DNA of 64,000 bases from Octopus sinensis (lineage: Eukaryota): the NCBI RefSeq assembly GCF_006345805.1, contig NC_043002.1, forward strand, positions 1,612,001 to 1,676,000. The letters are read 5' to 3'. The notes beneath the pieces were generated by a model. That model ran no database searches. It was given only the letters and a program-made list of their open reading frames with translations, and had not been told where the DNA came from. A program made the translations under genes and the position numbers. Shown one piece after another: positions 4,980-64,000 of this stretch (positions are counted from its first letter, which is position 1; each line of letters opens with the position of its first letter).

Positions 4980-5810
4980 TAGTAAAGTACAAATAGAAAG
5001 GCATAGGAGAAAATTCTTTGGATTTTTCTATTTTAATTAGGACTAAACATTACTATGGGAACGGATTATCATAGTGTAAACTATCTTGACACTGTCGGCT
5101 GATTTTATATGGCGACTGAAAGAAGGTAAAATTAACTACAACATAACTTGGTCCATAGTAAGGCATGCAAAGCCATACAATAACATTTCCAGGAGATGCA
5201 GATTCTGCTTTGAGGAATCTCTGTCTATTCTGTGGACTAATGAGAAGATGATTAATAGAATTTCTGAAAGACTTTCAAGATGCCTACACGCATATAAATA
5301 TACTTCCGCACAATGCAGTGGGAATGAATTTGAGTATCTGTCAACATAATTTACGTTGAAGTATGAATGAAGTTTAGCTTTAAGCTCCCCATTCTTATAA
5401 GCGCCAAGTACGCTTCGTGATCATGAGTGCGCCACACCACACGTTTTTTCACGGATTCTTGTATGAGCGAGTGTACACGCCTCACGCGGCTTGGGTGAAG
5501 GTCTTTATACATCCATAACAGTTAACGGTTATTTTTAATACTTTTCTCACTGTATTGCGTGTTCGTTTCTTTTTTGCATCCGTGATTTATTTTTGATTTA
5601 TGTAAATGAAGTTATTCCCGTTGTTTTGCTGCTTTTTTTTTCTACGAAATGAAAAGATACGTTGTGTAACTGCTAGTTTAACGAGTTGTGTTTATTTATC
5701 ACCCGATGAGACGCATCCGTGAGGGATCGATGCGAGATGTGCCGAAACAATTGTCGTGATTAATAATAAAAAAAACCTCATGTATTCCATCTTGTGTCTT
5801 TCACTTACCA
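4980..5810 (+). mobile_element. Penelope-like element 3' relic (GIY-YIG C-terminus, 3' region and hammerhead)
   Basis: ORF 5086-5349 reads FIWRLKEGKINYNITWSIVRHAKPYNNISRRCRFCFEE...INRISE.LSRCLH, the PLE endonuclease C-terminus. It is homologous to 1268-1621 and is followed by an HHR motif at 5698-5760. Confidence 0.82.
5698..5760 (+). ncRNA. Type I hammerhead ribozyme-like motif (U4->C variant)
   Basis: ATCAC-CCGATGA-G[stem II gacgcatc/gatgtgcc]-GAAAC-AATT-GTC-GTGAT: stem I ATCAC/GTGAT, core C(C)GATGA..GAAA, GUC cleavage triplet. Confidence 0.75.
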
Positions 5811-10985: not shown

Positions 10986-12548
10986 CTTCCTCTTTTTGAT
11001 TGCTGTTGATCGGCTATTTTTGTGTGGACCACGTGTGTTCTGCCGTCTTGCGGTGGTATTGTCGACGTCCCCGCCTTGTTTGAAGGGGGAACGTTGTAGG
11101 TTTGTCCCTTCGTAATGGAATACGAAGGTTTGAGTTCCTCCTCTTCAGACTTTACGTTGTCTGAGGAGGAGGAGCTGGTTAAGAGTCTGAAGAGAATGGC
11201 CGAAACAATGGCAGTGAAGAATTATGCAAAAGCGGTGAAAGATAAAAATGAAGGCTTGTGTCTGAAGGAGTTGAGTAGATTCAAAGAAATACTTAGAAAA
11301 GGAGGGGAACGACGTAAAAGTGTGTCGCCCAAAGAATTTTTAAAAGCGAAAAAAGAAAAAAATAGCATTATACACAGGACAATTGAAGTCATGTCGACCC
11401 CACAAGTCGAAAAGGCATTAAAACCAATCTGGCAAGGGATTCCTTACCTTGCCAGAGGAAGAAAGTTTGGAACGCTGGAGGTGCAGTTCCGGGAGTTAGC
11501 TCTTGCTAGGCTTCAGTCGGCAACTTAAAAACAGATGAAGTGATGCTACTACCTATATACCTTCGGAGACGTGCTTCCACGTTTAGGGTAGAAGATATAC
11601 TGCCAGAAATTGATATAGCCTGGCCAACAGCTGTCATACTACTGGGCACGGAAGAGAAGGTAGTGATCCTCCAGGCCACCAGAACGCCCTATAAGATCTG
11701 GTAAAGGCAGATCCAAGATATGATAGTCTAGGCGGCCCCGGAGACCTTGAGGACATGGTCAAGACAATCACTGCCGAAGAAGTGACACTCAGGATCAGAG
11801 TGGCAGGCAGGATCCTGCGATGCTACAAATGTGACCCTAAAGGCTACATTAGAGCAGACTGTCCTCCGCCACTCGTGAAGACTAAAGAGAAACCCGAGAG
11901 CTGGAAGGAAATCGCGACTTCACTGCCGATGAAAACCGGTACCAGCACCGAGGAAGAGGAGGTGAACGAGGAAAATAAAGGATAGGAAGCGGATGGTAAA
12001 AAAAGAAGAAAGAGAAGGAAAAAGCACACTTTGAAAATGATGACCCCCCATCCCACATTCACACGAATCGCAACCACACCTACCCTACCCTAACCTCCCC
12101 CTACAGACACCAACCCACTCCATGTCCCACAAAGACAAGCACAAGCACACAGGAGCCTCACCCCTGCCCTGTGAGGAAAAATATGTTATATTGTACAACG
12201 GACAAAATGAAAAACTTTATAATGAGATAGACTCGGGAGACAAAGCGATAAAAGTGAATACAACAGAAGTTGGGGGATTGCCTGGGCACATTCATTGTGC
12301 GGTGGCAGACCCAGAGTGTCTTTTGAGAGTGAAGGATTATGAGGAGAATTTTGAGTACTGGGGTCAAGAAAATTGACACCAGCATAATACCAAAACAGGT
12401 AGGCTATCTTGGACTGTTAAAGAAATTTAACATACACTTTTTTCGGAAAGATGTAAGTTAACTGTTGCAAATAATGTTTTAAACTGTTAAAAATAATATA
12501 TTCGTTATTTACATTCGATGGATATTTGTCCTCATCTTGTTTGTTGTT

Positions 12549-12594
12549 AACACAACGTTTCGGCTGATATACCCTCCAGCCTTCTTCAGGGGTC
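12549..12594 (-). ncRNA. Minimal type I hammerhead ribozyme in the PLE pLTR
   Basis: Minus strand: GACCC-CTGAAGA-A-GGCTG(gagggtatat)CAGCC-GAAACGTT-GTGTT. Core intact, palindromic minimal stem III (AACGTT), one mismatch in stem I. Confidence 0.82.
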
Positions 12595-12662
12595 TTGGGG
12601 AAATTTCGAACCTGGGTCCTCATTCCTAAGATATTTTTCGATGTTATTATTATTGTTGTTAT

Positions 12663-12739
12663 TCAGGCCATTGCTTGGAGTAGACCTCGGAATCTTGGGA
12701 TTAGTAGCCCGAGCTCTTAACCACTACGCCATATACCCG
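12663..12739 (-). promoter_or_regulatory. tRNA-like Pol III internal promoter (A box, degenerate B box) inside the PLE 3' region
   Basis: Minus strand: TGGCGTAGTGGTTAAGAGCTCGGGCTACTAATCCCAAGATTCCGAGGTCTACTCC. A second B-box-like GGTTCGAAATT lies at 12602-12612. Confidence 0.6.
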
Positions 12740-14474
12740 TGGGCAATTATGGAGTGAATTTTAGGGATTATAAATCTAATATTTTTCTATCCTTCCTTAA
12801 TACCGGTTCCCATATGTTGCTCATATCTGCACTCAGTCTGCTTAGGAGGTTGTTGTGTCCTAGCATATGTGCCGCTTCTTTTAGTTTTCATATTTTCCAG
12901 TGGTGTTCTCTGTCTATTATTTCAACTTCATCCCACAAGGGATCATACATGATCAGCTATACCCGATTTTTCAATATCTCGTGTCACAGCTTTGCGATGT
13001 TCGTCTACGCTTATTTTGAGGGGGCGGCATGTTTCGCCTTTGTAAAAACCTACCACAGCTGCATGGGATGGAGTACACACAGTCTTTGGTCATATTCTCT
13101 TCTATTGGTGGTTTTACTCGAAGGAAATATTTGCGAAGTGTTGTATTAATCTTGAATACTGTCCTGATGTCATATGGGCCGCATATCTTTTGTATCTTTT
13201 CGGAGAAGCCTTTCACAAAAGGTAGACAGACTGTGGACAGTTTATTGGCCTCATCCTCTCACTTCTTCATAATTGGAGTGGAGAGTATACTTTTGGGGTA
13301 GTTGTTCCTTAATAGATTGTTACTGAGCTTGATCATTTCTTCGTGGTGTGTATCACGATCCCTACTTATATTCTTTGCACGATGTTTTCGGCACTGAGAA
13401 ATCTCTCTTTTTACACTGTATGGATGGTGGGAATTGAAGTTGAAGTATCGTCCAGTAAATGTCGGCTTGCGGTATACGGATGTCCTGAATCCATACATGG
13501 TGCATGTTATTTGATTTCAAGATGAGGACAAATATCCGTCGAATGTAAATAATTTAAATAATGTACATAATTCCTCATCTCTTAAATATAGAACTGTTAC
13601 AAATAATGTTTTTAAAAAAAGTTGTATTAACAGGTTCAATGAAGTCGCGCGGTGGTGGGGGACGGACGGCTTCATTTCATTAATAATTTTATCTAATTCA
13701 TCATTTTTTACTGTCCCCACCATATGCTGTCTTCTCTTATGTTAGCCCCACCCCCTCGTCTGACCAATAAAAGAAAGTCAGTGGTAGTAAAGAGCCAAAA
13801 ATAAACACAGAGCAGATACGAACGCAGACAAAAATATTACTAACACAAACAGCAAAACAAAGCCCCCAAAATAATACTGAATATTCTACACAAGCAACAC
13901 ACAGCAAGGACAAAAAAAAATACAAAAATAAAATAACTGTTCAAAAACATGTTCAATGATATTATCTGGAGTGCGGGGTTCGAGTTAACGTCGTTCCAGT
14001 TTTTCATTTTTGATTCCCATTCTTTTCATTCGTTTTTATTTTTCCCTACTTCTGTGTTTTGTCTGTCCTTGTTTGTCCCCCTGTGTTAGACCTCGTGTGG
14101 CCAAATAAAGAAATACAGTAGTAGTAGTAGTAGTAATAGTAGTAGTAGTAGTAGTAGTAGTAGTCGTACGAGTTCTCAGTTGAAGTCATCGTCAGTTACG
14201 TAATAGATACGAGTTCGAATTACTGTCAAGGTAGACGTGTCAGCGATAGCACAATAGACAATAATAAGATTCGGAATACCACCACACCATAATAGTGGAG
14301 ACAGGAATCTTACAGTGCTGATGACAACATACAAATGGACGAGGATCCACCTGATAACCTGTATAATCGAATATGAAATCTGCATTAATACAGAGGAGAG
14401 TAACGGCGGCAAAAGTGAAAACTGCACAAGTGAGAAGAATGGGTGAGAGCAAACCCGGATTATTTGATTTCAGA

Positions 14475-41395: not shown

Positions 41396-41720
41396 AATGC
41401 AGCCACGGGGGTACATAAGGTAAGTATGCATAATCCTACACACACACACACTCATAGAAACACGCATAAATATATATGTGTGTGTATCTAAAGTTAAAAT
41501 CCAATACAATGATAATGCGCTCCCCTAGAGGGATGGGAAACATTCAATTTTTCACTGGTTCGGCGGTTTAATACCCAATTTAGCAAGAAAAACTTTTCCA
41601 CATTTCAAAGGGTTATATGTTCAATATACAAAAATGAAAAGAAAATGGAGATTTACGACTGTCATATTTTGATTTATTAACATAATATTATATTACTATT
41701 ATATTATAAATATATTATGA

Positions 41721-41796
41721 TCCTACAATTGTTTTGATTCAGACCCAATAATAAATTATAAAAATTCATGTTTATAGGTAAGAATCTCATCAGGGA
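41721..41796 (-). ncRNA. Hammerhead-like motif with long stem II, G12->A variant
   Basis: Minus strand: TCC-CTGATGA-GATTC...GAATC-AAAAC-AATT-GTA-GGA. Confidence 0.65.
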
Positions 41797-42377
41797 AACA
41801 TTAGACCAAAATTTCAAATGGGGATTTTTAGATCCTAAAACAGACTGAATTAAATATATTTATGTTTGTAAACCTGACCGTCAATAATTTCTAGAAAATA
41901 TATAATAAAAGTATATAATAAAAGCAAAAATAACAAATTATAAATAAATAATATCTAATATCACGGTCATAAAATATGTTTGCGTAGTTTTAAGAATATA
42001 AATCTAAGTATATTTCTGTGCATTATTTAAAATAAATAAAGAAAAAACAGAAGTAATAGGCTAAGAATTTATGGCGGAACAGGAAATATTTCATTTTATT
42101 ATTCTGTACTATTTGGAAAAATACATGTTATTCAGACAATTTATTGAGAAAAATTCTTTATTGTCACTCGTGTTATAAAATAAAAACAACACGCTATTAG
42201 TCATGGCTAAATAGAAAAAAAAAAAAGCTACTTTATCCTCATTAGGTCAGTATATATTAATATATTTAGGAAAATGTATACTGACATATATATGATGTAT
42301 GTCATGTGTATATATGTATAGGTGTGCATGTGTGTGTCTGTGTCTATATATATATAAATTTTTATATGTATGTGAAG

Positions 42378-42457
<80 letters not shown>

Positions 42458-42972
42458 ATGTACATATATGTATATGCGTGTATATCTATAATCTATATGT
42501 ATTTGAATTCATACACGTGTTACTTAACAGATTACTATATAGTTAAGGAATACAAATAAATAAATCGGTACGAAATCAAATAAATTAAAAGCTACATAAT
42601 GTTTTGGTAAATTTCTAACGTTATTGACGATAAATCAAGTACCAGCTGCGTACTGGGTCGATATAATCGGTGCCTCACCCCCAATAACTTTTGGGCCTTG
42701 TGCTTAGACTAGAAAATAATGTTTATTCTCCTTTATCACGTGTTCCACATTTTGATGTAATTGGATTTTGAAAAAAATATTTCATTGGGACTGACTGATT
42801 CATAAGTTTAAATTAGTATCTTCATAGGGATATTTGTAATAATTCAGTGTATTACTAACTAAAGATTTTATTATATTATATATAATATAATTGTCTAATG
42901 TAAGGTTATATGCAAATACTGTGATGTATTCATCTTAAGTATATAATTATATTGGTACATGAATAAAAGTTT

Positions 42973-43165
42973 CCCCCTAGCATTGCTTGACAACCGATGC
43001 TGGTGTGTTTATGTCCCCGTTACTTAGCGGTTCGGCAAAAGAGACCGATAGAATAAGTACTGGGTTTACAAAAGAATAAGTCCCGGGGTCGGGTTGCTCG
43101 ATTAAAAGCGGTGCTCCAGCATGGCCGCAGTCAAAATGACTGAAACAAGTAAAAGAGTAAAAGAG
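42973..43165 (+). mobile_element. SINE 3' portion (family 3) with a CR1-like tail and (GAGTAAAA)n end
   Basis: GCGGTGCTCCAGCATGGCCGCAGTCAAAATGACTGAAACAAGTAAAAGAGTAAAAGAG. Related pieces at ~20315-20405 (+), ~22385-22560 (-) and ~28920-29105 (-). Confidence 0.8.
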
Positions 43166-43985
43166 AATATTATTTTATTTTATCTTGAATAATTATAAGC
43201 CTTTAAATTAAATTTAATAATGTACAAATAACTTAATAGTAGACCCTATAGTAATTAAAAACATTTCTAATGTCATATTATGAATTTCCAGCTATTCTGT
43301 TTTTTCGAAAATACTTTTATAATAATTCTTAAATATGATTATATATGTTTAACATAAATTTTAAATAATAATACATATAGGAATATTTTATAGTATAGTA
43401 TAGGTAATAAATAATCGTAATTTATATAAAATTGTTTAATATCGGCGTACTTTTAAATTTTGATTGCATTTTTATATGTGTGATTATAAATAATGAATAC
43501 AGTGTAATTTATAATATTATTTAGTTTTAGCCAAGTGAGGATAAAGTATTTAAACAATTTTTTTCACTATTTTCCCATGATTAATAGTGGGTTGTTTTTG
43601 TTTTATAATACTAGTGAGAAGAAGGAATTTCCTGAATAAATTGTCTGAATAAAATGTAATTTTCCTAATAGTATGGAAGAATAAAAGGAAATATTTTCTA
43701 TTTCGCCATAAATTCTTAGCTTATTATTTCTCAGTTTTTTTCTTCAAACTAATGCACAGAAATATATTTAGATTAATATTCTTAAAAGTGCACAAACATA
43801 TTTTATGACTGTTATATTAGATTTTATTTATTTAATTTTTTATCTGTTTTAGCTTTTTTTAATTATATATTTTTTAGTACGTTTAAAAAAATTATTGACG
43901 CTCACGCTTACAAACGTAAGCATATTTAATTCAGTTTGTTTCAGGAGGATCTAAAAATCCTCATTTGTAATTTTAGTCAAATATT

Positions 43986-44063
43986 CCCCTGATGAGATTC
44001 TTACCCATGAAAAATAAGTTCTTATAAATTTATTATTGGGTCTGAATCAAAACAATTGTAGGA
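43986..44063 (+). ncRNA. Hammerhead-like motif with long stem II, G12->A variant
   Basis: CC-CTGATGA-GATTC-ttACCCA...TGGGT-ct-GAATC-AAAAC-AATT-GTA-GG. Confidence 0.65.
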
Positions 44064-44158
44064 TTATGATAGTTATATTATATTATAATAATGATATGAT
44101 ACTAAGTTAATAAATTAAAATATGTCAGTCGTAAATCTCCATTTTCTTTTCGTTTAAG

Positions 44159-54971: not shown

Positions 54972-55023
<52 letters not shown>

Positions 55024-55213
55024 ATATATAATAATAATAATAAATATTAGGGAATAATCCAAATTTACAGGGAAAAAAAATCAGATTTAGGATTAAATCC
55101 AATTTTATAGTAAAATATTATAAAATATTATTAGAGACAAAACCACTATTTTGCAAAACAACAAGGAAAGACTTAATCAATACATAAAAGTTTAATAAAT
55201 AGTCAAAAAACCG

Positions 55214-55256
55214 CCACTACAATCGTTTCTTGTCTTGATCGACAATCTTCAGGTGG
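55214..55256 (-). ncRNA. Type I hammerhead ribozyme, intact core
   Basis: Minus strand: CCAC-CTGAAGA-TTGTC(gatcaa)GACAA-GAAAC-GATT-GTA-GTGG. All core nucleotides and stems I-III are present; GUA triplet. Confidence 0.85.
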
Positions 55257-55303
55257 ACTTCCAATAAGTCAGTTTCAAATTATGAAACTGACTTATTGGA
55301 AGT

Positions 55304-55345
55304 CCACCTGAAGATTGTCGATCAAGACAAGAACGATTGTAGTGG
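55304..55345 (+). ncRNA. Hammerhead copy with a one-A deletion in GAAA
   Basis: CCAC-CTGAAGA-TTGTC(gatcaa)GACAA-GAAC-GATT-GTA-GTGG. Confidence 0.7.
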
Positions 55346-55431
55346 CGGTTTTTTTGACTATTTATTAAAATTTTATGTATTGATTAAGTCTTTCCTTGTT
55401 TGTTTGCAAAATAGTGGTTTTGTCTCTAATA

Positions 55432-55482
<51 letters not shown>

Positions 55483-55584: not shown

Positions 55585-55596
55585 ATATATATATAT

Positions 55597-55770
55597 ATAT
55601 CTATTGTATAAGGGCATTATATAAATGCCTCACACTAGGAGGACAAAGTCATTACTACCAAAAATTACTACCAAAAATTATACCAAAAAATTATACAAAA
55701 AATGGTAGTAATGACTTTGTCTAGTGTGAGGCATTTATGTGTAATAATGCCCTTTATACAATATAGATAT
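55597..55770. repeat. Second palindrome (~65-bp arms) with a spacer of short tandem CCAAAAATTA-like units
   Basis: TTGTATAAGGGCATTAT..ATAAATGCCTCACACTAG..ACAAAGTCATTACTACCA versus TGGTAGTAATGACTTTGT-CTAGTGTGAGGCATTTAT..ATAATGCCCTTTATACAA. Confidence 0.85.
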
Positions 55771-55890
55771 AATAATTTGTTCAAAAGAAAAAAATTATCG
55801 GATTCTTTATGAGGTTTTCACGCTAGCTACGATATTTCTTGTTAAGACCCTTATTAAGAGATTATCCTTAATTGTTAAACGTATATATAT

Positions 55891-59540: not shown

Positions 59541-62500
59541 TTAAGTCAAGTTTTGTTCAAGTAGTGAGTTCTTGTTGGGTGAGTTGTATCCCATTATGAG
59601 TGGCTTATCTGGTATTCTTTGAAGGAATCTATCCAGACTCTGTTTAAAGTTGATGGGATTCTTTTCCTCTTTGATCTCTTTCGGGACAATGTTAAATAGG
59701 GCAGGGCCTGTTGAGGAAAAGAAATTATGTTGCAGTGTACATGTATGTTGTGATCTTGAATTGGGCAGGGGACGTATAGCCCGTGGTCCAAGTCTCGGAT
59801 GAACCTTGAAGCTAATGTTTAGGTCGTTTGGGCAAAGTTGGCGGTATATTTTCCACATCGTACAAATGATGTACCGCTCACGGCGACGCTGGAGGGAGTA
59901 AAGTTTCAAGGCTTTAAGGCGATCCCAATAGTCGAGAGCAGCCATGCCTTCAATTTGTTTAGTGAGTGCCCTCTGGGGTGACTCAATTCTGGAGATGTTT
60001 TGTCTTGTGTGAGGAGACCACAGTGAGCAGCAGTATTCAAGGTGTGGCCGTACAAAGGAGGAAAAAAGTGGTATGATGACACCTTGTTCTCTGGACCGGA
60101 AAGTTCTTAAGATCCAGGAACTCATCCTACGAGCTATGTCGACCTTCTTGTTGATGTGTGCACTCCAACTGAGATCGTCATCAACAATTACACCCAGGTC
60201 TCTGATATTGTTAGAGGCTGTGAGCGGTTCCCCTGAAGGAAGAGAGTATGGCTGTTTTAGTGAGGAGTTTCTTCCAAAATGCATCAGCTCAAATTTTCCC
60301 TCGTTCAGTTGCATTTTGTTTCTGTCTGCCCATTGACTCACAGCATATAGATCAGACTGGAGTTGAGTTCGGTCTGCTTCTTCATTGACGATTTGCTGGA
60401 GCTTGGTGTCATCAGCAAATATTTTCACTTTGCAGTAATGTACGACACTGGAAAGGTCGTTTATGTAGATTATGAAGAGTAGCGGTCCCAAGACAGTCCC
60501 CTGGGGGACACCGCTGGTGACTTTTGCTGGGCTTGAGTTGACTCCATCAACTACAACATGTTGTGTTCTATTCGCCAGGAAATACTTGAACCAGTGTTGA
60601 ACTTTTCCACGGATTCCAACATTTGCCAATTTTGAGAGTAGGATATTATGGTCTACCCTGTCGAACGCTTTACTGAAGTCAAGATATATGACATCAGAGT
60701 TCGAACCTGATCCTAAGGCTTTGAGTACATCTTCAATGTGGTGTAAGAGCTGTGTTAGACAGCCCCTGCCACATCGAAAGCCATGCTGATTTGCATTTAG
60801 GAGTTTCTGGGTCTCCAGGAGGTCAGCTATCATTGATCTTAACACTCTTTCAAACACTTTAATGATGTGGGAGGTGAGTGGGATTGGGCGATAGTTGACC
60901 GCGAGGGATCTGTTTTCCTGTTTGAAAACCTGGATGACCGACTGGGATAGAAACTGTTTCGGTATATAACCTGCGTCTAACGAATTTCTCCAGAGGTTGG
61001 TCAGAGGGACTGCAAGTTGGTGTCTACATTCCTTCAGGAGACTAGCGGGGAATCTATCAGGGCCTACAGCAGAGTAGTATTTGACCTCATTTATTGCTGC
61101 TACGATGTCGGTGGGAGTGAAGGTTATGTCTGAGATTTTATGTTGGGAGTCAACTTCGTTCGCTTCTCTTACGTCAATATCAGTGGGAACACTAAAGACA
61201 GAGCAGTATTGTTTCTGCAGTATTTCTGCCATTTCTTTAGCATCGTGTTGGGGAATGCCGTTAGCATCAATCAATGGCCCAATGGGTGAGACAGTGGTTC
61301 TATGCTTATTTGCATAGGAATAGAACACTTTTGGGTTCTGTTTGATGTTTTTGATTACCCACTGTTCCTCCACAGCTCTTTGGTTTTCAATGGAGGTTTT
61401 CATGTCGTTCTGCAGATGAGGTTTTTCCAGCTCTAGCCTTTTCATTGTTGTTGAATGTGGATGTTGTTTGTGGGAATATTTTGATTGGTTGATTTTTTTG
61501 TTAAGTCTTTTGATGCGCCTGATGAGTGTTTTCTTCTTTTTAGGGAGCCGATTTCTGTTTGTGTTAGATTTCGTGGGAGCGTACTTAGAGCATGTATATG
61601 TGACAATGTTTTCAAAGTGCCGCCATGCCGTCTCAATATGGGTGGAATTGAGAGTAAAAGACCAGTCGATGAAAGACAGATCCTTTCTGATTGCTCCCCA
61701 GTCCGCTTTGTGGAGGTTTATGTTATCAAATGAGTGCCATGGAGTGGGATTGGCTGGTTTGGTTTTTATATGTCGGGAATTGAAATTGCAGAGTACCTTG
61801 TCGTGATCTGAGAGGAGAGTTTTTTCAACTGAAATACTGTGAACGAAGCTAGAGTGATTGGTCAATACCAGATCCAAGATCGTTTTATTCTGTCTCGTTG
61901 GTTCGAGCACAAGCTGAGTCAGGAAGTATTCATCCATTAGATTAAAGAGCAGTTCCACTGCTGCTCTATCTGATGTAGAGCACTTGCCTAACTTTAGAGT
62001 ATTTGTGGGCCAGTTCACATGAGGGAGGTTAAAATCACCCATCACTAGTATGTTTCCGGAGTGGTACTTCCGAAGGAAGGACTTGACTTTGCTAAGGCAC
62101 TCTTCAAAGCACTTTAAAGGTGCTTGGGGAGGCCTGTAAAGACCAACAATGTTCTTGGCCTTGCTGAATAGTGATACAGATTCACAATAGCCATTGGAAA
62201 ATATGTCCTTGGCATCAAGTGAGAAGGAGTCATGGATAAAGATGGCTGTCCCTCCCTTATTTCGGTTTGTACGATCCGCACGAACAATGGTGAAATCTTT
62301 TATTTTCACCTCGGCGTCTATATGGGTGTTGTTCAGGTGAGTCTCGGTAAGGATAAAGAAAGGGAAGCAATGTGTCGTTTCGGCAAGCCAACTCTCTATA
62401 TATGGGATCTTCCATTTTTGGGCAATAATTGATGGGTTGATGCCACGTACATTTAATAGGAATGTCGAGGTAAGTGAAGTTTGATGTTTGCATTGTTCTA

Positions 62501-62597
62501 AGTTGTTCAGTGGTAACAATGTGGGTAGTTCTTGTATGGAGCTGTGTGTGTATGATTTTCTTGTTGGTAGTGGGTGTGTGGTCCTTGTGATTTGCAT
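59541..62597 (-). CDS. LINE ORF2: apurinic-like endonuclease plus reverse transcriptase (1018 aa, uninterrupted)
   Basis: APE motifs LNVRGI, LTETHL, GGTAIFI, YRPP, GDFNLP, LDLVLTN, SDH. RT motifs NYRPI, QHGFR, YLDFSKAFDRVDH, GVPQGTVLGPLLF, FADD, RDLGV. Confidence 0.95.
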   Translation of the reverse strand: MQITRTTHPLPTRKSYTHSSIQELPTLLPLNNLEQCKHQTSLTSTFLLNVRGINPSIIAQKWKIPYIESWLAETTHCFPFFILTETHLNNTHIDAEVKIKDFTIVRADRTNRNKGGTAIFIHDSFSLDAKDIFSNGYCESVSLFSKAKNIVGLYRPPQAPLKCFEECLSKVKSFLRKYHSGNILVMGDFNLPHVNWPTNTLKLGKCSTSDRAAVELLFNLMDEYFLTQLVLEPTRQNKTILDLVLTNHSSFVHSISVEKTLLSDHDKVLCNFNSRHIKTKPANPTPWHSFDNINLHKADWGAIRKDLSFIDWSFTLNSTHIETAWRHFENIVTYTCSKYAPTKSNTNRNRLPKKKKTLIRRIKRLNKKINQSKYSHKQHPHSTTMKRLELEKPHLQNDMKTSIENQRAVEEQWVIKNIKQNPKVFYSYANKHRTTVSPIGPLIDANGIPQHDAKEMAEILQKQYCSVFSVPTDIDVREANEVDSQHKISDITFTPTDIVAAINEVKYYSAVGPDRFPASLLKECRHQLAVPLTNLWRNSLDAGYIPKQFLSQSVIQVFKQENRSLAVNYRPIPLTSHIIKVFERVLRSMIADLLETQKLLNANQHGFRCGRGCLTQLLHHIEDVLKALGSGSNSDVIYLDFSKAFDRVDHNILLSKLANVGIRGKVQHWFKYFLANRTQHVVVDGVNSSPAKVTSGVPQGTVLGPLLFIIYINDLSSVVHYCKVKIFADDTKLQQIVNEEADRTQLQSDLYAVSQWADRNKMQLNEGKFELMHFGRNSSLKQPYSLPSGEPLTASNNIRDLGVIVDDDLSWSAHINKKVDIARRMSSWILRTFRSREQGVIIPLFSSFVRPHLEYCCSLWSPHTRQNISRIESPQRALTKQIEGMAALDYWDRLKALKLYSLQRRRERYIICTMWKIYRQLCPNDLNISFKVHPRLGPRAIRPLPNSRSQHTCTLQHNFFSSTGPALFNIVPKEIKEEKNPINFKQSLDRFLQRIPDKPLIMGYNSPNKNSLLEQNLT

Positions 62598-63880
62598 AGG
62601 TGGTTGCTGATAGCTCGTTGGATCTCCTGGCTTAGGTCGGCCTTCATATTTTCTAGGTAAGTCAGTAAAAAAGAGTTACCACTTTGGTTTGCCACTTGGT
62701 CGGAGGATACATATTTCATGTTTGTGTTATTTGGTGTTATGGTTTTTTCATGGTTCTGTCTTCGTTGTTTGATTGTAGGAGGGAAAACGTGGTTGTATGT
62801 TGCTTTTATTGTTGTCGAAGATCTCCTCTGTTGCTGTTTATATCTATTTTGTGATCGTTTTGTGCCCTTCAGATGGTGGTGGTTGCATTCTGGGTTCAGG
62901 CACATCCTTAGTGACACAGAAGTTTGGCACAGTTTAGGATGAAAGAAGGTGCATCTATTGCCTTTTGTACATCCATATTTGGGATCAGGACCATGGATTC
63001 TGTATTTAGGACAGTATTTGGGGTGGAGGTGAGGGCAGTTTTTTCCCGTTATACCGTATGGACAGGTGCCCTTAACAAGTCTACGACATAGGGTGGGATG
63101 GAAAAAAGCACAGCGTCCCTTGTTGTTGTTGCCGCTGGGGCCAAATTTACAGTTGCCTTGAGCATAGTAACGGCAGGGTGTTTGATATGGGTGTATGGGT
63201 GATTTTTCTATAGAAGAGTGTTGTTGTTGCTGTAGCAGCAGTGAAACTTGACTTGCAACAGCAGGGCTAGCAGGTGGAATCGGGTCAGGTACTGGTGACG
63301 TAGTAGCAGAGACAGGCTGTTGTGGTATTGAGTCCTGTGGAATGGGTGAAACTTGACTTTCAACAGCAGGGCTAGCAGGTGGAATCGGGTCAGGTACTGG
63401 TGATGTAGTAGCAGAAACAGGCTGTTGTGATAGTGAGTCCTGTGGAATGGGTGAAACTTGACTTTCAACAGCAGGGCTAGCAGGTGGAATCGGGTCAGGT
63501 ACTGGTGATGTAGTAGCAGAAACAGGCTGTTGTGATAGTGAGTCCTGTGGAATGGGTGGAATGAGGTCAGATGTTTGTTGCTGGCTATCGAGTCGTTGAA
63601 GTGATCCCTGACCTGTTGGAGTTGGGTCATTTGGTGCACTACATTCATTGACAAGGATGGCTTTTAGTGTTGCCATGTGCGTGTGAATAATAGGAAATAT
63701 TCTGACAATCTCTTTTGTTTTATTTTCTATCTGTTTTACAGATCTGGGAAAGGATTGTTTTGCTAATTTTTCAGCTATTTTACTGTAAACATTAGCTTCA
63801 TTGTGGTGAGTGTACCAAGCGTTTATCATTGCAGTGATTTCATTTTCAACCCAGTGGCGTTTTTGAATATTATCGGCCAT
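62507..63880 (-). CDS. LINE ORF1: Myb/SANT-like N-terminus, Pro/Ser/Gln repeats, four CCCH zinc fingers, C-terminal helix
   Basis: W..NEITAMI.AW...VYSKIAEKL....RSVKQIENK (trihelix-like). Fingers C-x7-C-x12-C-x3-H, C-x7-C-x8-C-x3-H, C-x13-C-x5-C-x3-H and C-x8-C-x4-C-x3-H. First ATG at 63880. Confidence 0.88.
   Translation of the reverse strand: MADNIQKRHWVENEITAMINAWYTHHNEANVYSKIAEKLAKQSFPRSVKQIENKTKEIVRIFPIIHTHMATLKAILVNECSAPNDPTPTGQGSLQRLDSQQQTSDLIPPIPQDSLSQQPVSATTSPVPDPIPPASPAVESQVSPIPQDSLSQQPVSATTSPVPDPIPPASPAVESQVSPIPQDSIPQQPVSATTSPVPDPIPPASPAVASQVSLLLQQQQHSSIEKSPIHPYQTPCRYYAQGNCKFGPSGNNNKGRCAFFHPTLCRRLVKGTCPYGITGKNCPHLHPKYCPKYRIHGPDPKYGCTKGNRCTFFHPKLCQTSVSLRMCLNPECNHHHLKGTKRSQNRYKQQQRRSSTTIKATYNHVFPPTIKQRRQNHEKTITPNNTNMKYVSSDQVANQSGNSFLLTYLENMKADLSQEIQRAISNHLCKSQGPHTHYQQENHTHTAPYKNYPHCYH
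63241..63558. repeat. In-frame 105-bp x3 tandem repeat within ORF1
   Basis: GTGAAACTTGACTT.. recurs at 63241, 63346 and 63451, encoding IPQDSLSQQPVSATTSPVPDPIPPASPAVESQVSP. Confidence 0.95.
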
Positions 63881-64000
63881 ATTCAGTGGGACAGTATTAT
63901 ACACTGTACGTTAGTTATTGATGAAAAGTTTGTGTCGATATATTCGGAAATGCGTGGCTATATCTGAGTGTGTGTGGGAGAGTTCAGTGTATATAGTACA

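Follow-up and report, generated by a model that had tools for sequence, protein, structure and literature searches.

Palindromic insertions of the spliced 5' leader of a Penelope-like element in the genome of Octopus sinensis

The window, a 64,000-nt stretch of Octopus sinensis contig NC_043002.1, contains a palindrome flanked on both sides by (TA)n. Its inverted arms (about 55115 to the centre and the centre to 55446) share 95.8% identity over 330 nt (E 2e-148), are about 165 nt long and are separated by a 5-nt loop, AATTA (55278–55282). The left arm exceeds the right by about 75–80 nt (55118 to about 55036). These data confirm the preliminary description of near-perfect arms with a 5-nt loop inside (TA)n and bear out its view of the locus as the product of a Penelope-like element (PLE) with a tail. 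The same description took the locus for a minimal PLE insertion, but it is no stand-alone element: judged by 99% identity, both arms are copies of the 5' leader of a Penelope-like retrotransposon that is autonomous and carries an intron (the parent), with the intron removed. The features of the locus are as follows.

54972–55035, no strand: left flank, a (TA)n target with two extra AAT units, read from the sequence
55036–55286, minus strand: long arm, derived from the parent PLE's spliced 5' leader; based on the exon-2 match to parents
55036–55118, minus strand: tail, the stretch between the two end sites, from comparison with L132, L173, L176, L186 and L230
55214–55256, minus strand: type I hammerhead motif with complete core, from a descriptor scan; predicted cut 55218/55217
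55266–55286, minus strand: what remains of exon 1 in the long arm, with the splice junction at 55266/55265
55278–55286, no strand: head-to-head junction, comprising the 5-nt loop and a 4-nt microhomology, TGAA (55283–55286), assignable to either arm
55283–55441, plus strand: short arm, the same spliced leader up to the upstream end site (site 2), from the parent match
55283–55294, plus strand: what remains of exon 1 in the short arm, with the splice junction at 55294/55295
55304–55345, plus strand: second hammerhead motif, with GAAC for GAAAC; one A of GAAA absent (55331–55333)
55442–55480, no strand: right flank, a (TA)n target within which a target-site duplication is unreadable

The long arm begins 2 nt within the inferred transcription start and stops, as all long arms do, at the downstream end site (site 1). 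Its exon-2 part matches the intron-bearing parents L168, L172 and L173 at 219 of 221 nt (1 mismatch, 3–4 gaps). The short arm matches L168 and L172 at 133/133 nt, with no mismatches and 2 gaps, and stops where the short arms of other loci stop. The window's type of left flank recurs at nearly all loci.

Two other inverted arrangements in the 64 kb, listed earlier at 12501–13596 and 41633–44157, stood up to re-examination. The first is a 35-bp inverted piece (12505–12539/13518–13552) next to a hammerhead core and a disrupted GIY-YIG frame; the second has 638-bp arms (41624–42241/43536–44163) that are 81.5% alike, with cores facing outward. A second, older hairpin lies 150 nt to the right of the palindrome (55594–55771). 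Its arms are 73% alike, it is unrelated to the palindrome family and a 49-nt piece of it recurs in L203; it is possibly a small inverted-repeat element. On the minus strand at 59544–63910 there are two long open frames of 467 and 1044 codons, the longer starting with what by eye is an AP-endonuclease-like stretch; this is likely a young LINE with ORF1 and ORF2. Weak matches to the parent's endonuclease region at 1322–1561 and 5098–5289 (33–35%, E about 1e-5) are, going by this similarity, remains of another, older element of the parent's kind.

The parent was traced through a contig guessed to be RNA, which has the same hammerhead core with other flanks, and then through a copy whose 5' side is long and T-rich. 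The unit measures about 5.6–7 kb and consists of a short head, a GT donor, an intron of 1.0–1.8 kb, an AG acceptor, the hammerhead, site 2, the tail and site 1, followed by about 55–60 nt up to the ORF start, the ORF, a long 3' region and the head again. Full-length copies thus have a leader, an ORF with YRDD and GIY-YIG-like motifs, and a second leader. The single ORF of an endonuclease-bearing (EN+) PLE, with reverse transcriptase (RT) followed by a GIY-YIG endonuclease, was recognized from motifs in ORF pieces of 506 and 598 aa, and partial tandem pLTRs, an inverted 5'-truncated arm and the tail, also marks of such elements, were found at L131, L132, L173/174, L175/176 and L186. Direct Pfam scans returned neither an RT nor a GIY-YIG family. 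The ORF has 169 homologues carrying PF26215/PF28514 (best E 1e-109) and Atlas clusters at 0.95–0.97, some with RVT_1 in 16–20% of members; these sequence searches support an RT element of animals.

Comparison by eye with the available text of Craig et al. 2021 (PMC8557442) shows Hydra-clade motifs in the ORF, namely IKWKAF, SDKTRN, CTCRDKSNC, CYLC and KCRH, with KWK where Hydra has RWK; CCHH was not seen. The (TA)n target and canonical hammerhead of that clade are both present, and by these motifs the parent is a putative Hydra-type PLE. In L172 (1070–2863), an asparagine-rich stretch lies between the thumb and linker of the ORF, like inserts described for Adineta Penelopes in the part of PMC3846280 available. 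At L168, L173/174, L183, L184 and L228–L231, the head and part of the intron are tandemly repeated at 0.8–1.2 kb spacing, placing two or three candidate start sites and donors ahead of one acceptor.

In six copies of the window's subfamily, exon 1 is followed by GTAAGT, an intron of 1817–1833 nt and TTTTAG. Joining the parental exons gives the window sequence exactly, without microhomology at the joint. In processed pseudogenes, intron loss marks an mRNA template. Exact loss of the parental GT–AG intron was found in four subfamilies, each with an intron-bearing form and a spliced form that share diagnostic bases.

Window's subfamily: intron-bearing parents L168 and L172
GACACTGAATT subfamily: L226–L231 against L200–L202 and L205
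GTAACTGAATT subfamily: L186, L187, L190 and L191 against L203
GAAA-donor subfamily: L150 and L162 against L050

The joint in the window predicted a GTAAGT donor 4 nt 5' of the donor first seen, and this upstream donor was then found; most of the 100 listed among 360 intron-bearing heads have it. Both of these donors, 4 nt apart, are used by one parent type. Among the first 100 of 3055 exon-2 starts, all on contig C1 and scored by eye, 56 were spliced and 42 unspliced, with 2 of another kind. DNA copies are the source of every statement here on splicing, start site and cap; spliced DNA copies confound RNA-type contigs, and contigs from sequencing runs do not report strand, start or level. At L204, the joint in both arms lies 9 nt 5' of the usual acceptor and follows TG instead of AG, reflecting either a non-canonical acceptor or a template jump. 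At L194 and L196, spliced arms are joined to ORF-end or ORF-start fragments, suggesting template jumps along the same RNA.

The exact head-to-head junction pattern identified at least 230 palindromes in the 2.72-Gb genome, compared with none for a reversed-pattern control, so the earlier suggestion that ribozyme-bearing fold-backs are common here was correct. A search for long arms gave 1300 first-look candidates, of which the 40 scored had 97–100% identity, and an inverted second arm stopping at the same point was present at 24 of 30 fetched loci. No sequencing-run contigs bridging the window locus were found and several arm differences are homopolymer indels, as an assembly fold-back artefact might produce. 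Such an artefact would nevertheless have to account for junctions that vary across 230 loci, for arm ends that are fixed yet unequal, and for left and right flanks that are unrelated to each other, and the palindrome sequence is present in runs of 8 studies; we regard an artefact as extremely improbable.

The two arms follow a strict rule. At all 41 junctions sampled from the first 50 listed, one arm bears the tail and the other lacks it, and the end sites are fixed: the tail-less arm stops at the upstream one and its partner about 75 nt beyond it (41/41). The one-long, one-short pairing also holds at 20/20 asymmetric loci and, by eye, in 22/24 long intron-bearing insertions, the exceptions being L173/174 and L175/176. 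Asymmetric loci have one complete and one shortened arm; the complete arm is the long one in 12/20 and the short one in 8/20, and in these eight the truncated arm is the tail-bearing one (L210 has only the last 30 nt of the tail). Older related families, 84–88% alike, with both end sites and the tail, were seen at L019:720–1042, L004:938–1269 and L192:3060–3950; the L019 copy has a hammerhead-like core with other stems.

By contrast with the arm ends, the junction varies: 40 classified loci comprise 19 junction types. The window's type, present at 6/56 loci, spans both stem-III subfamilies, and each of the two commonest types is likewise shared between subfamilies. Because the same junction appears in different subfamilies and the types are so many, its recurrence points to a microhomology hot spot rather than descent, and the junction is likely made anew at each insertion. 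The preliminary description had proposed that the fold-back is independently mobile. Recurrence of the window's junction and a few local tandem pairs of palindromes (L023, L036 and L195) are in its favour, but inheritance of the junction with the lineage, expected of such a unit, was not found among these loci. The palindromic insertion is likely a dead-end by-product.

Within a locus the two arms are alike in sequence. Splice isoform was identical in both arms at 36/36 callable junctions (5/41 were uncallable), whereas two RNAs drawn at random should give about 10 discordant junctions among the 32 from the parent type with two donors. The stem-III A/G variant was discordant between arms at 1/53 loci, against about 26 expected under random pairing; private substitutions occurred 12 times in both arms and 18 times in one arm only, and the two arms of L225 disagree at a single subfamily site. 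The likeness could also stem from gene conversion between the arms once they were inserted. Exact intron removal in both arms makes it likely that one spliced mRNA was copied twice.

We therefore think it probable that the two head-to-head, intron-less leader copies arose at a (TA)n target whose two strands used a single spliced sense RNA as template. In this model, both cut strands would prime reverse transcription at two internal leader sites, one per strand, the cDNA 3' ends would join through the 4-nt microhomology near the RNA 5' end, and one protein–RNA complex, possibly a dimer, would serve both strands. The hammerhead would ride along uncut in the template RNA.

Fold-back self-priming, in which a cDNA is copied back on itself or an antisense RNA primes itself, would also explain identical arms and junction microhomology, and the available part of PMC3846280 proposes an antisense template for head-to-head PLE palindromes while not excluding a sense template. 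An antisense RNA, however, is incapable of carrying a sense-strand GT–AG splice joint, and a spliced sense template contradicts the antisense self-priming model of PMC3846280 for these copies. Moreover, at the 8/20 loci with a complete short arm the truncated partner has the tail, which the site-2 cDNA lacks; with no tail to fold back onto, both arms must have been primed on RNA. We consider self-priming very unlikely here: it is largely refuted for spliced copies, although it could hold for some unspliced ones.

A spliced tip might instead act as its own non-autonomous, SINE-like master, copied by the parent's enzyme, with palindromes still forming at insertion. About half of exon-2 arms are spliced, and in counts that include some overlapping loci a core-breaking variant occurs at 5 spliced loci and in 0 of the unspliced arms sampled, and the variant of the window's long arm at 3 spliced loci only; thus some spliced copies may have their own source. 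The spliced read-through copies L195 and L198, which keep 180–380 nt upstream of the start, could carry a promoter. Against this, all seven common variants (in the same counts) are found in both spliced and unspliced arms, and spliced products of four subfamilies and two donors require repeated splicing from intron-bearing parents. A SINE-like master is accordingly an unlikely source, and we retain both-strand priming on a spliced parental RNA.

The hammerhead motifs were found on both strands by descriptor scan, as previously noted, with a complete core on the minus strand and one A missing from the plus strand. The minus-strand motif comprises stem I (55256–55253/55217–55214), CTGAAGA (55252–55246) and GAAA (55229–55226), and only the minus arm has the full CUGANGA/GAAA/NUH core with three stems. 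The A absent from the plus motif, one of several single-base indels in homopolymer runs that distinguish the arms, may reflect either true mutation or misassembly of a homopolymer. No hammerhead was among the 150 of 157 Rfam matches listed, and in a single arm the hammerhead is not the lowest-energy fold (z 0.40). The loop that closes the short stem III can pair with itself in either natural variant (self-duplex −5.8 kcal/mol), which suggests that the candidate ribozyme would be used as a dimer. Its layout is that of the Hydra-clade hammerheads in File S2 of PMC8557442, and the available text of PMC4209133 describes dimer-type PLE hammerheads with short stem III.

The preliminary description had further envisaged that a read-through transcript chooses between ribozyme and double-stranded hairpin. 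This switch is unsupported. Whichever side read-through enters a head-to-head pair from, the complementary arm is transcribed ahead of the ribozyme, which leaves no room to expect a switch, and the full hairpin has a computed energy of −252 to −255 kcal/mol, compared with −5.9 kcal/mol for the hammerhead fold. Both motifs pass the descriptor pattern at only 19/40 loci, and minimal PLE hammerheads showed no cleavage as monomers in the part of PMC4209133 available. Within the palindrome, the hammerhead is predicted to be masked. Taken with the junction data, this makes a fold-back that moves as a unit and switches between ribozyme and hairpin extremely improbable.

At L031–L070, the hammerhead pattern is intact in 23/40 short arms versus 31/40 long arms, and short arms carry 3 of the 4 internal deletions seen; synthesis of the short arm may be rougher, although the difference is borderline. 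At L096:418–465 (contig C27, about 18.713 Mb), the 48-nt hammerhead core of an intron-bearing copy lies within an RNA-type contig from run X11 (RNA by guess, depth 543). In this contig the 48-nt core is linked in frame to a piece from upstream and to an exon further downstream, at L096:1495. The acceptor of the 48-nt piece is the element's own and its donor coincides with the predicted ribozyme cut site, making exonisation into a host mRNA possible. No upstream exon was found within 20 kb, and a Pfam scan gave no match.

The 5' ends of spliced copies pile up at the initiator-like TCACTTC of the parent, which from these DNA copies we infer to be the transcription start. The letter after the last templated base, in 79 rows, was the cap-expected C in 34, the genomic letter in 19 (15 of which continue into upstream sequence) and another in 26; the last letter of the search pattern left out the commonest junction. 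The extra G that a cap would leave is thus no more than suggested, most of the 34 being also explicable by microhomology. No shared extension 5' of short copies was found in 73/73 rows, the parent having another base there, and no shared sequence 3' of the tail among the first 100 of 195 rows, the parent continuing in A/T only. Pol III transcription was rejected because of a T6–T7 run located between the hammerhead and the end sites, well ahead of both.

Much of this architecture is already in the literature, namely inverted pLTRs, an intron that ends at helix I, tails, and hammerhead pairs on opposite strands. In the text of PMC8557442 available, the Hydra clade shares with the parent DKT, a CxCx5C linker, and CxxC and CxH at the endonuclease end, as well as (TA)n targets, the hammerhead layout, an inverted 5'-truncated arm and the tail. 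It differs in that described Hydra members are under about 3 kb, whereas the parent measures about 5.6–7 kb with its leader intron; the parent hammerhead also differs in sequence from that of Hydra-1_oBim, and intron-less leader palindromes do not figure in the Hydra-clade account as available.

Penelope of Drosophila virilis and Pen2a_Av of Adineta vaga, in the available parts of their papers, resemble the parent in having the start and a 5'-UTR intron in the pLTR and in head-to-head inverted pLTRs with overlap at the junction, and also in an intron ending next to hammerhead helix I and an initiator-like TCACT (PMC2377424, PMC3846280, PMC4209133). Those papers report intron retention, whereas here about half of the leader copies are spliced; retention was explained there by an antisense self-primed template or by selection against intron-less copies. 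The same sources record opposite-strand hammerhead pairs 100–700 bp apart in Schistosoma (PMC2377424/PMC3846280/PMC4209133).

Metazoan non-LTR retrozymes, from the portion of the preprint available (bioRxiv 10.64898/2026.07.22.740005), are likewise short, non-coding and pLTR-related, with a type I hammerhead. They are head-to-tail tandem repeats, whereas the window palindrome is head-to-head; unlike retrozymes, it has a coding parent of 99% identity, and its ends lie away from the ribozyme cut site. The head-to-tail monomers, each with a hammerhead, that define such retrozymes were not found in the palindrome, whose arms are unequal.

The closest biochemical parallel is PAc (Poseidon of Anolis; Frangieh et al. 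2024, PMC11167929), which belongs to another clade than the parent. In vitro, as described in the accessible part of that paper, PAc nicks and extends both strands, two internal start sites set the tail, uncut hammerhead RNA serves as template, hammerhead cleavage is not needed and the protein is predicted to be a dimer. By analogy, both-strand priming on one RNA would fit this system. PAc showed no strand difference in start site, whereas here the assignment of one arm per site is almost invariant, and neither spliced templates nor palindromes are discussed in the available text (PMC11167929).

The proposed scheme also has a counterpart outside PLEs. During L1 twin priming, two target strands prime on one RNA, joining occurs by microhomology, and each of the two cDNAs covers its own part of the RNA. 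In the palindromes, by contrast, the cDNAs overlap almost wholly and have fixed internal starts without poly(A). We found no description of spliced PLE leader palindromes or of the one-long, one-short rule in the literature searched, with subscription papers largely outside it.

With reverse transcription beginning within the leader, nothing beyond tips of 170 and 250 nt would be expected from a spliced mRNA. ORF-bearing copies would then need a read-through RNA in which the internal intron is mostly left in, and this origin would make the element appear to retain its intron. An ORF follows 0/183 spliced and 7/113 unspliced arms, a weak contrast from a non-random sample of loci, and spliced read-through copies exist, so read-through RNA is not always unspliced. 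On balance we lean, by a small margin over even, towards the full scheme, in which PLEs copy spliced sense mRNA, priming of both strands on one RNA gives leader palindromes, and ORF copies come from read-through.

The significance of intron retention in PLEs was called unknown in PMC8557442, and the reason for it and the way inverted ends form are open questions stated in its available text. The palindromes, attributable only to a sense, spliced RNA, bear on the first of these. The strict one-long, one-short pattern offers a sharp prediction for the existing in vitro system, and the hundreds of apparent ribozyme hairpins in such genomes would be insertion by-products rather than regulatory switches. 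If the full scheme is true, internal priming would be what causes intron retention, and start-site and donor choice would be recorded in more than a thousand leader arms of this genome.
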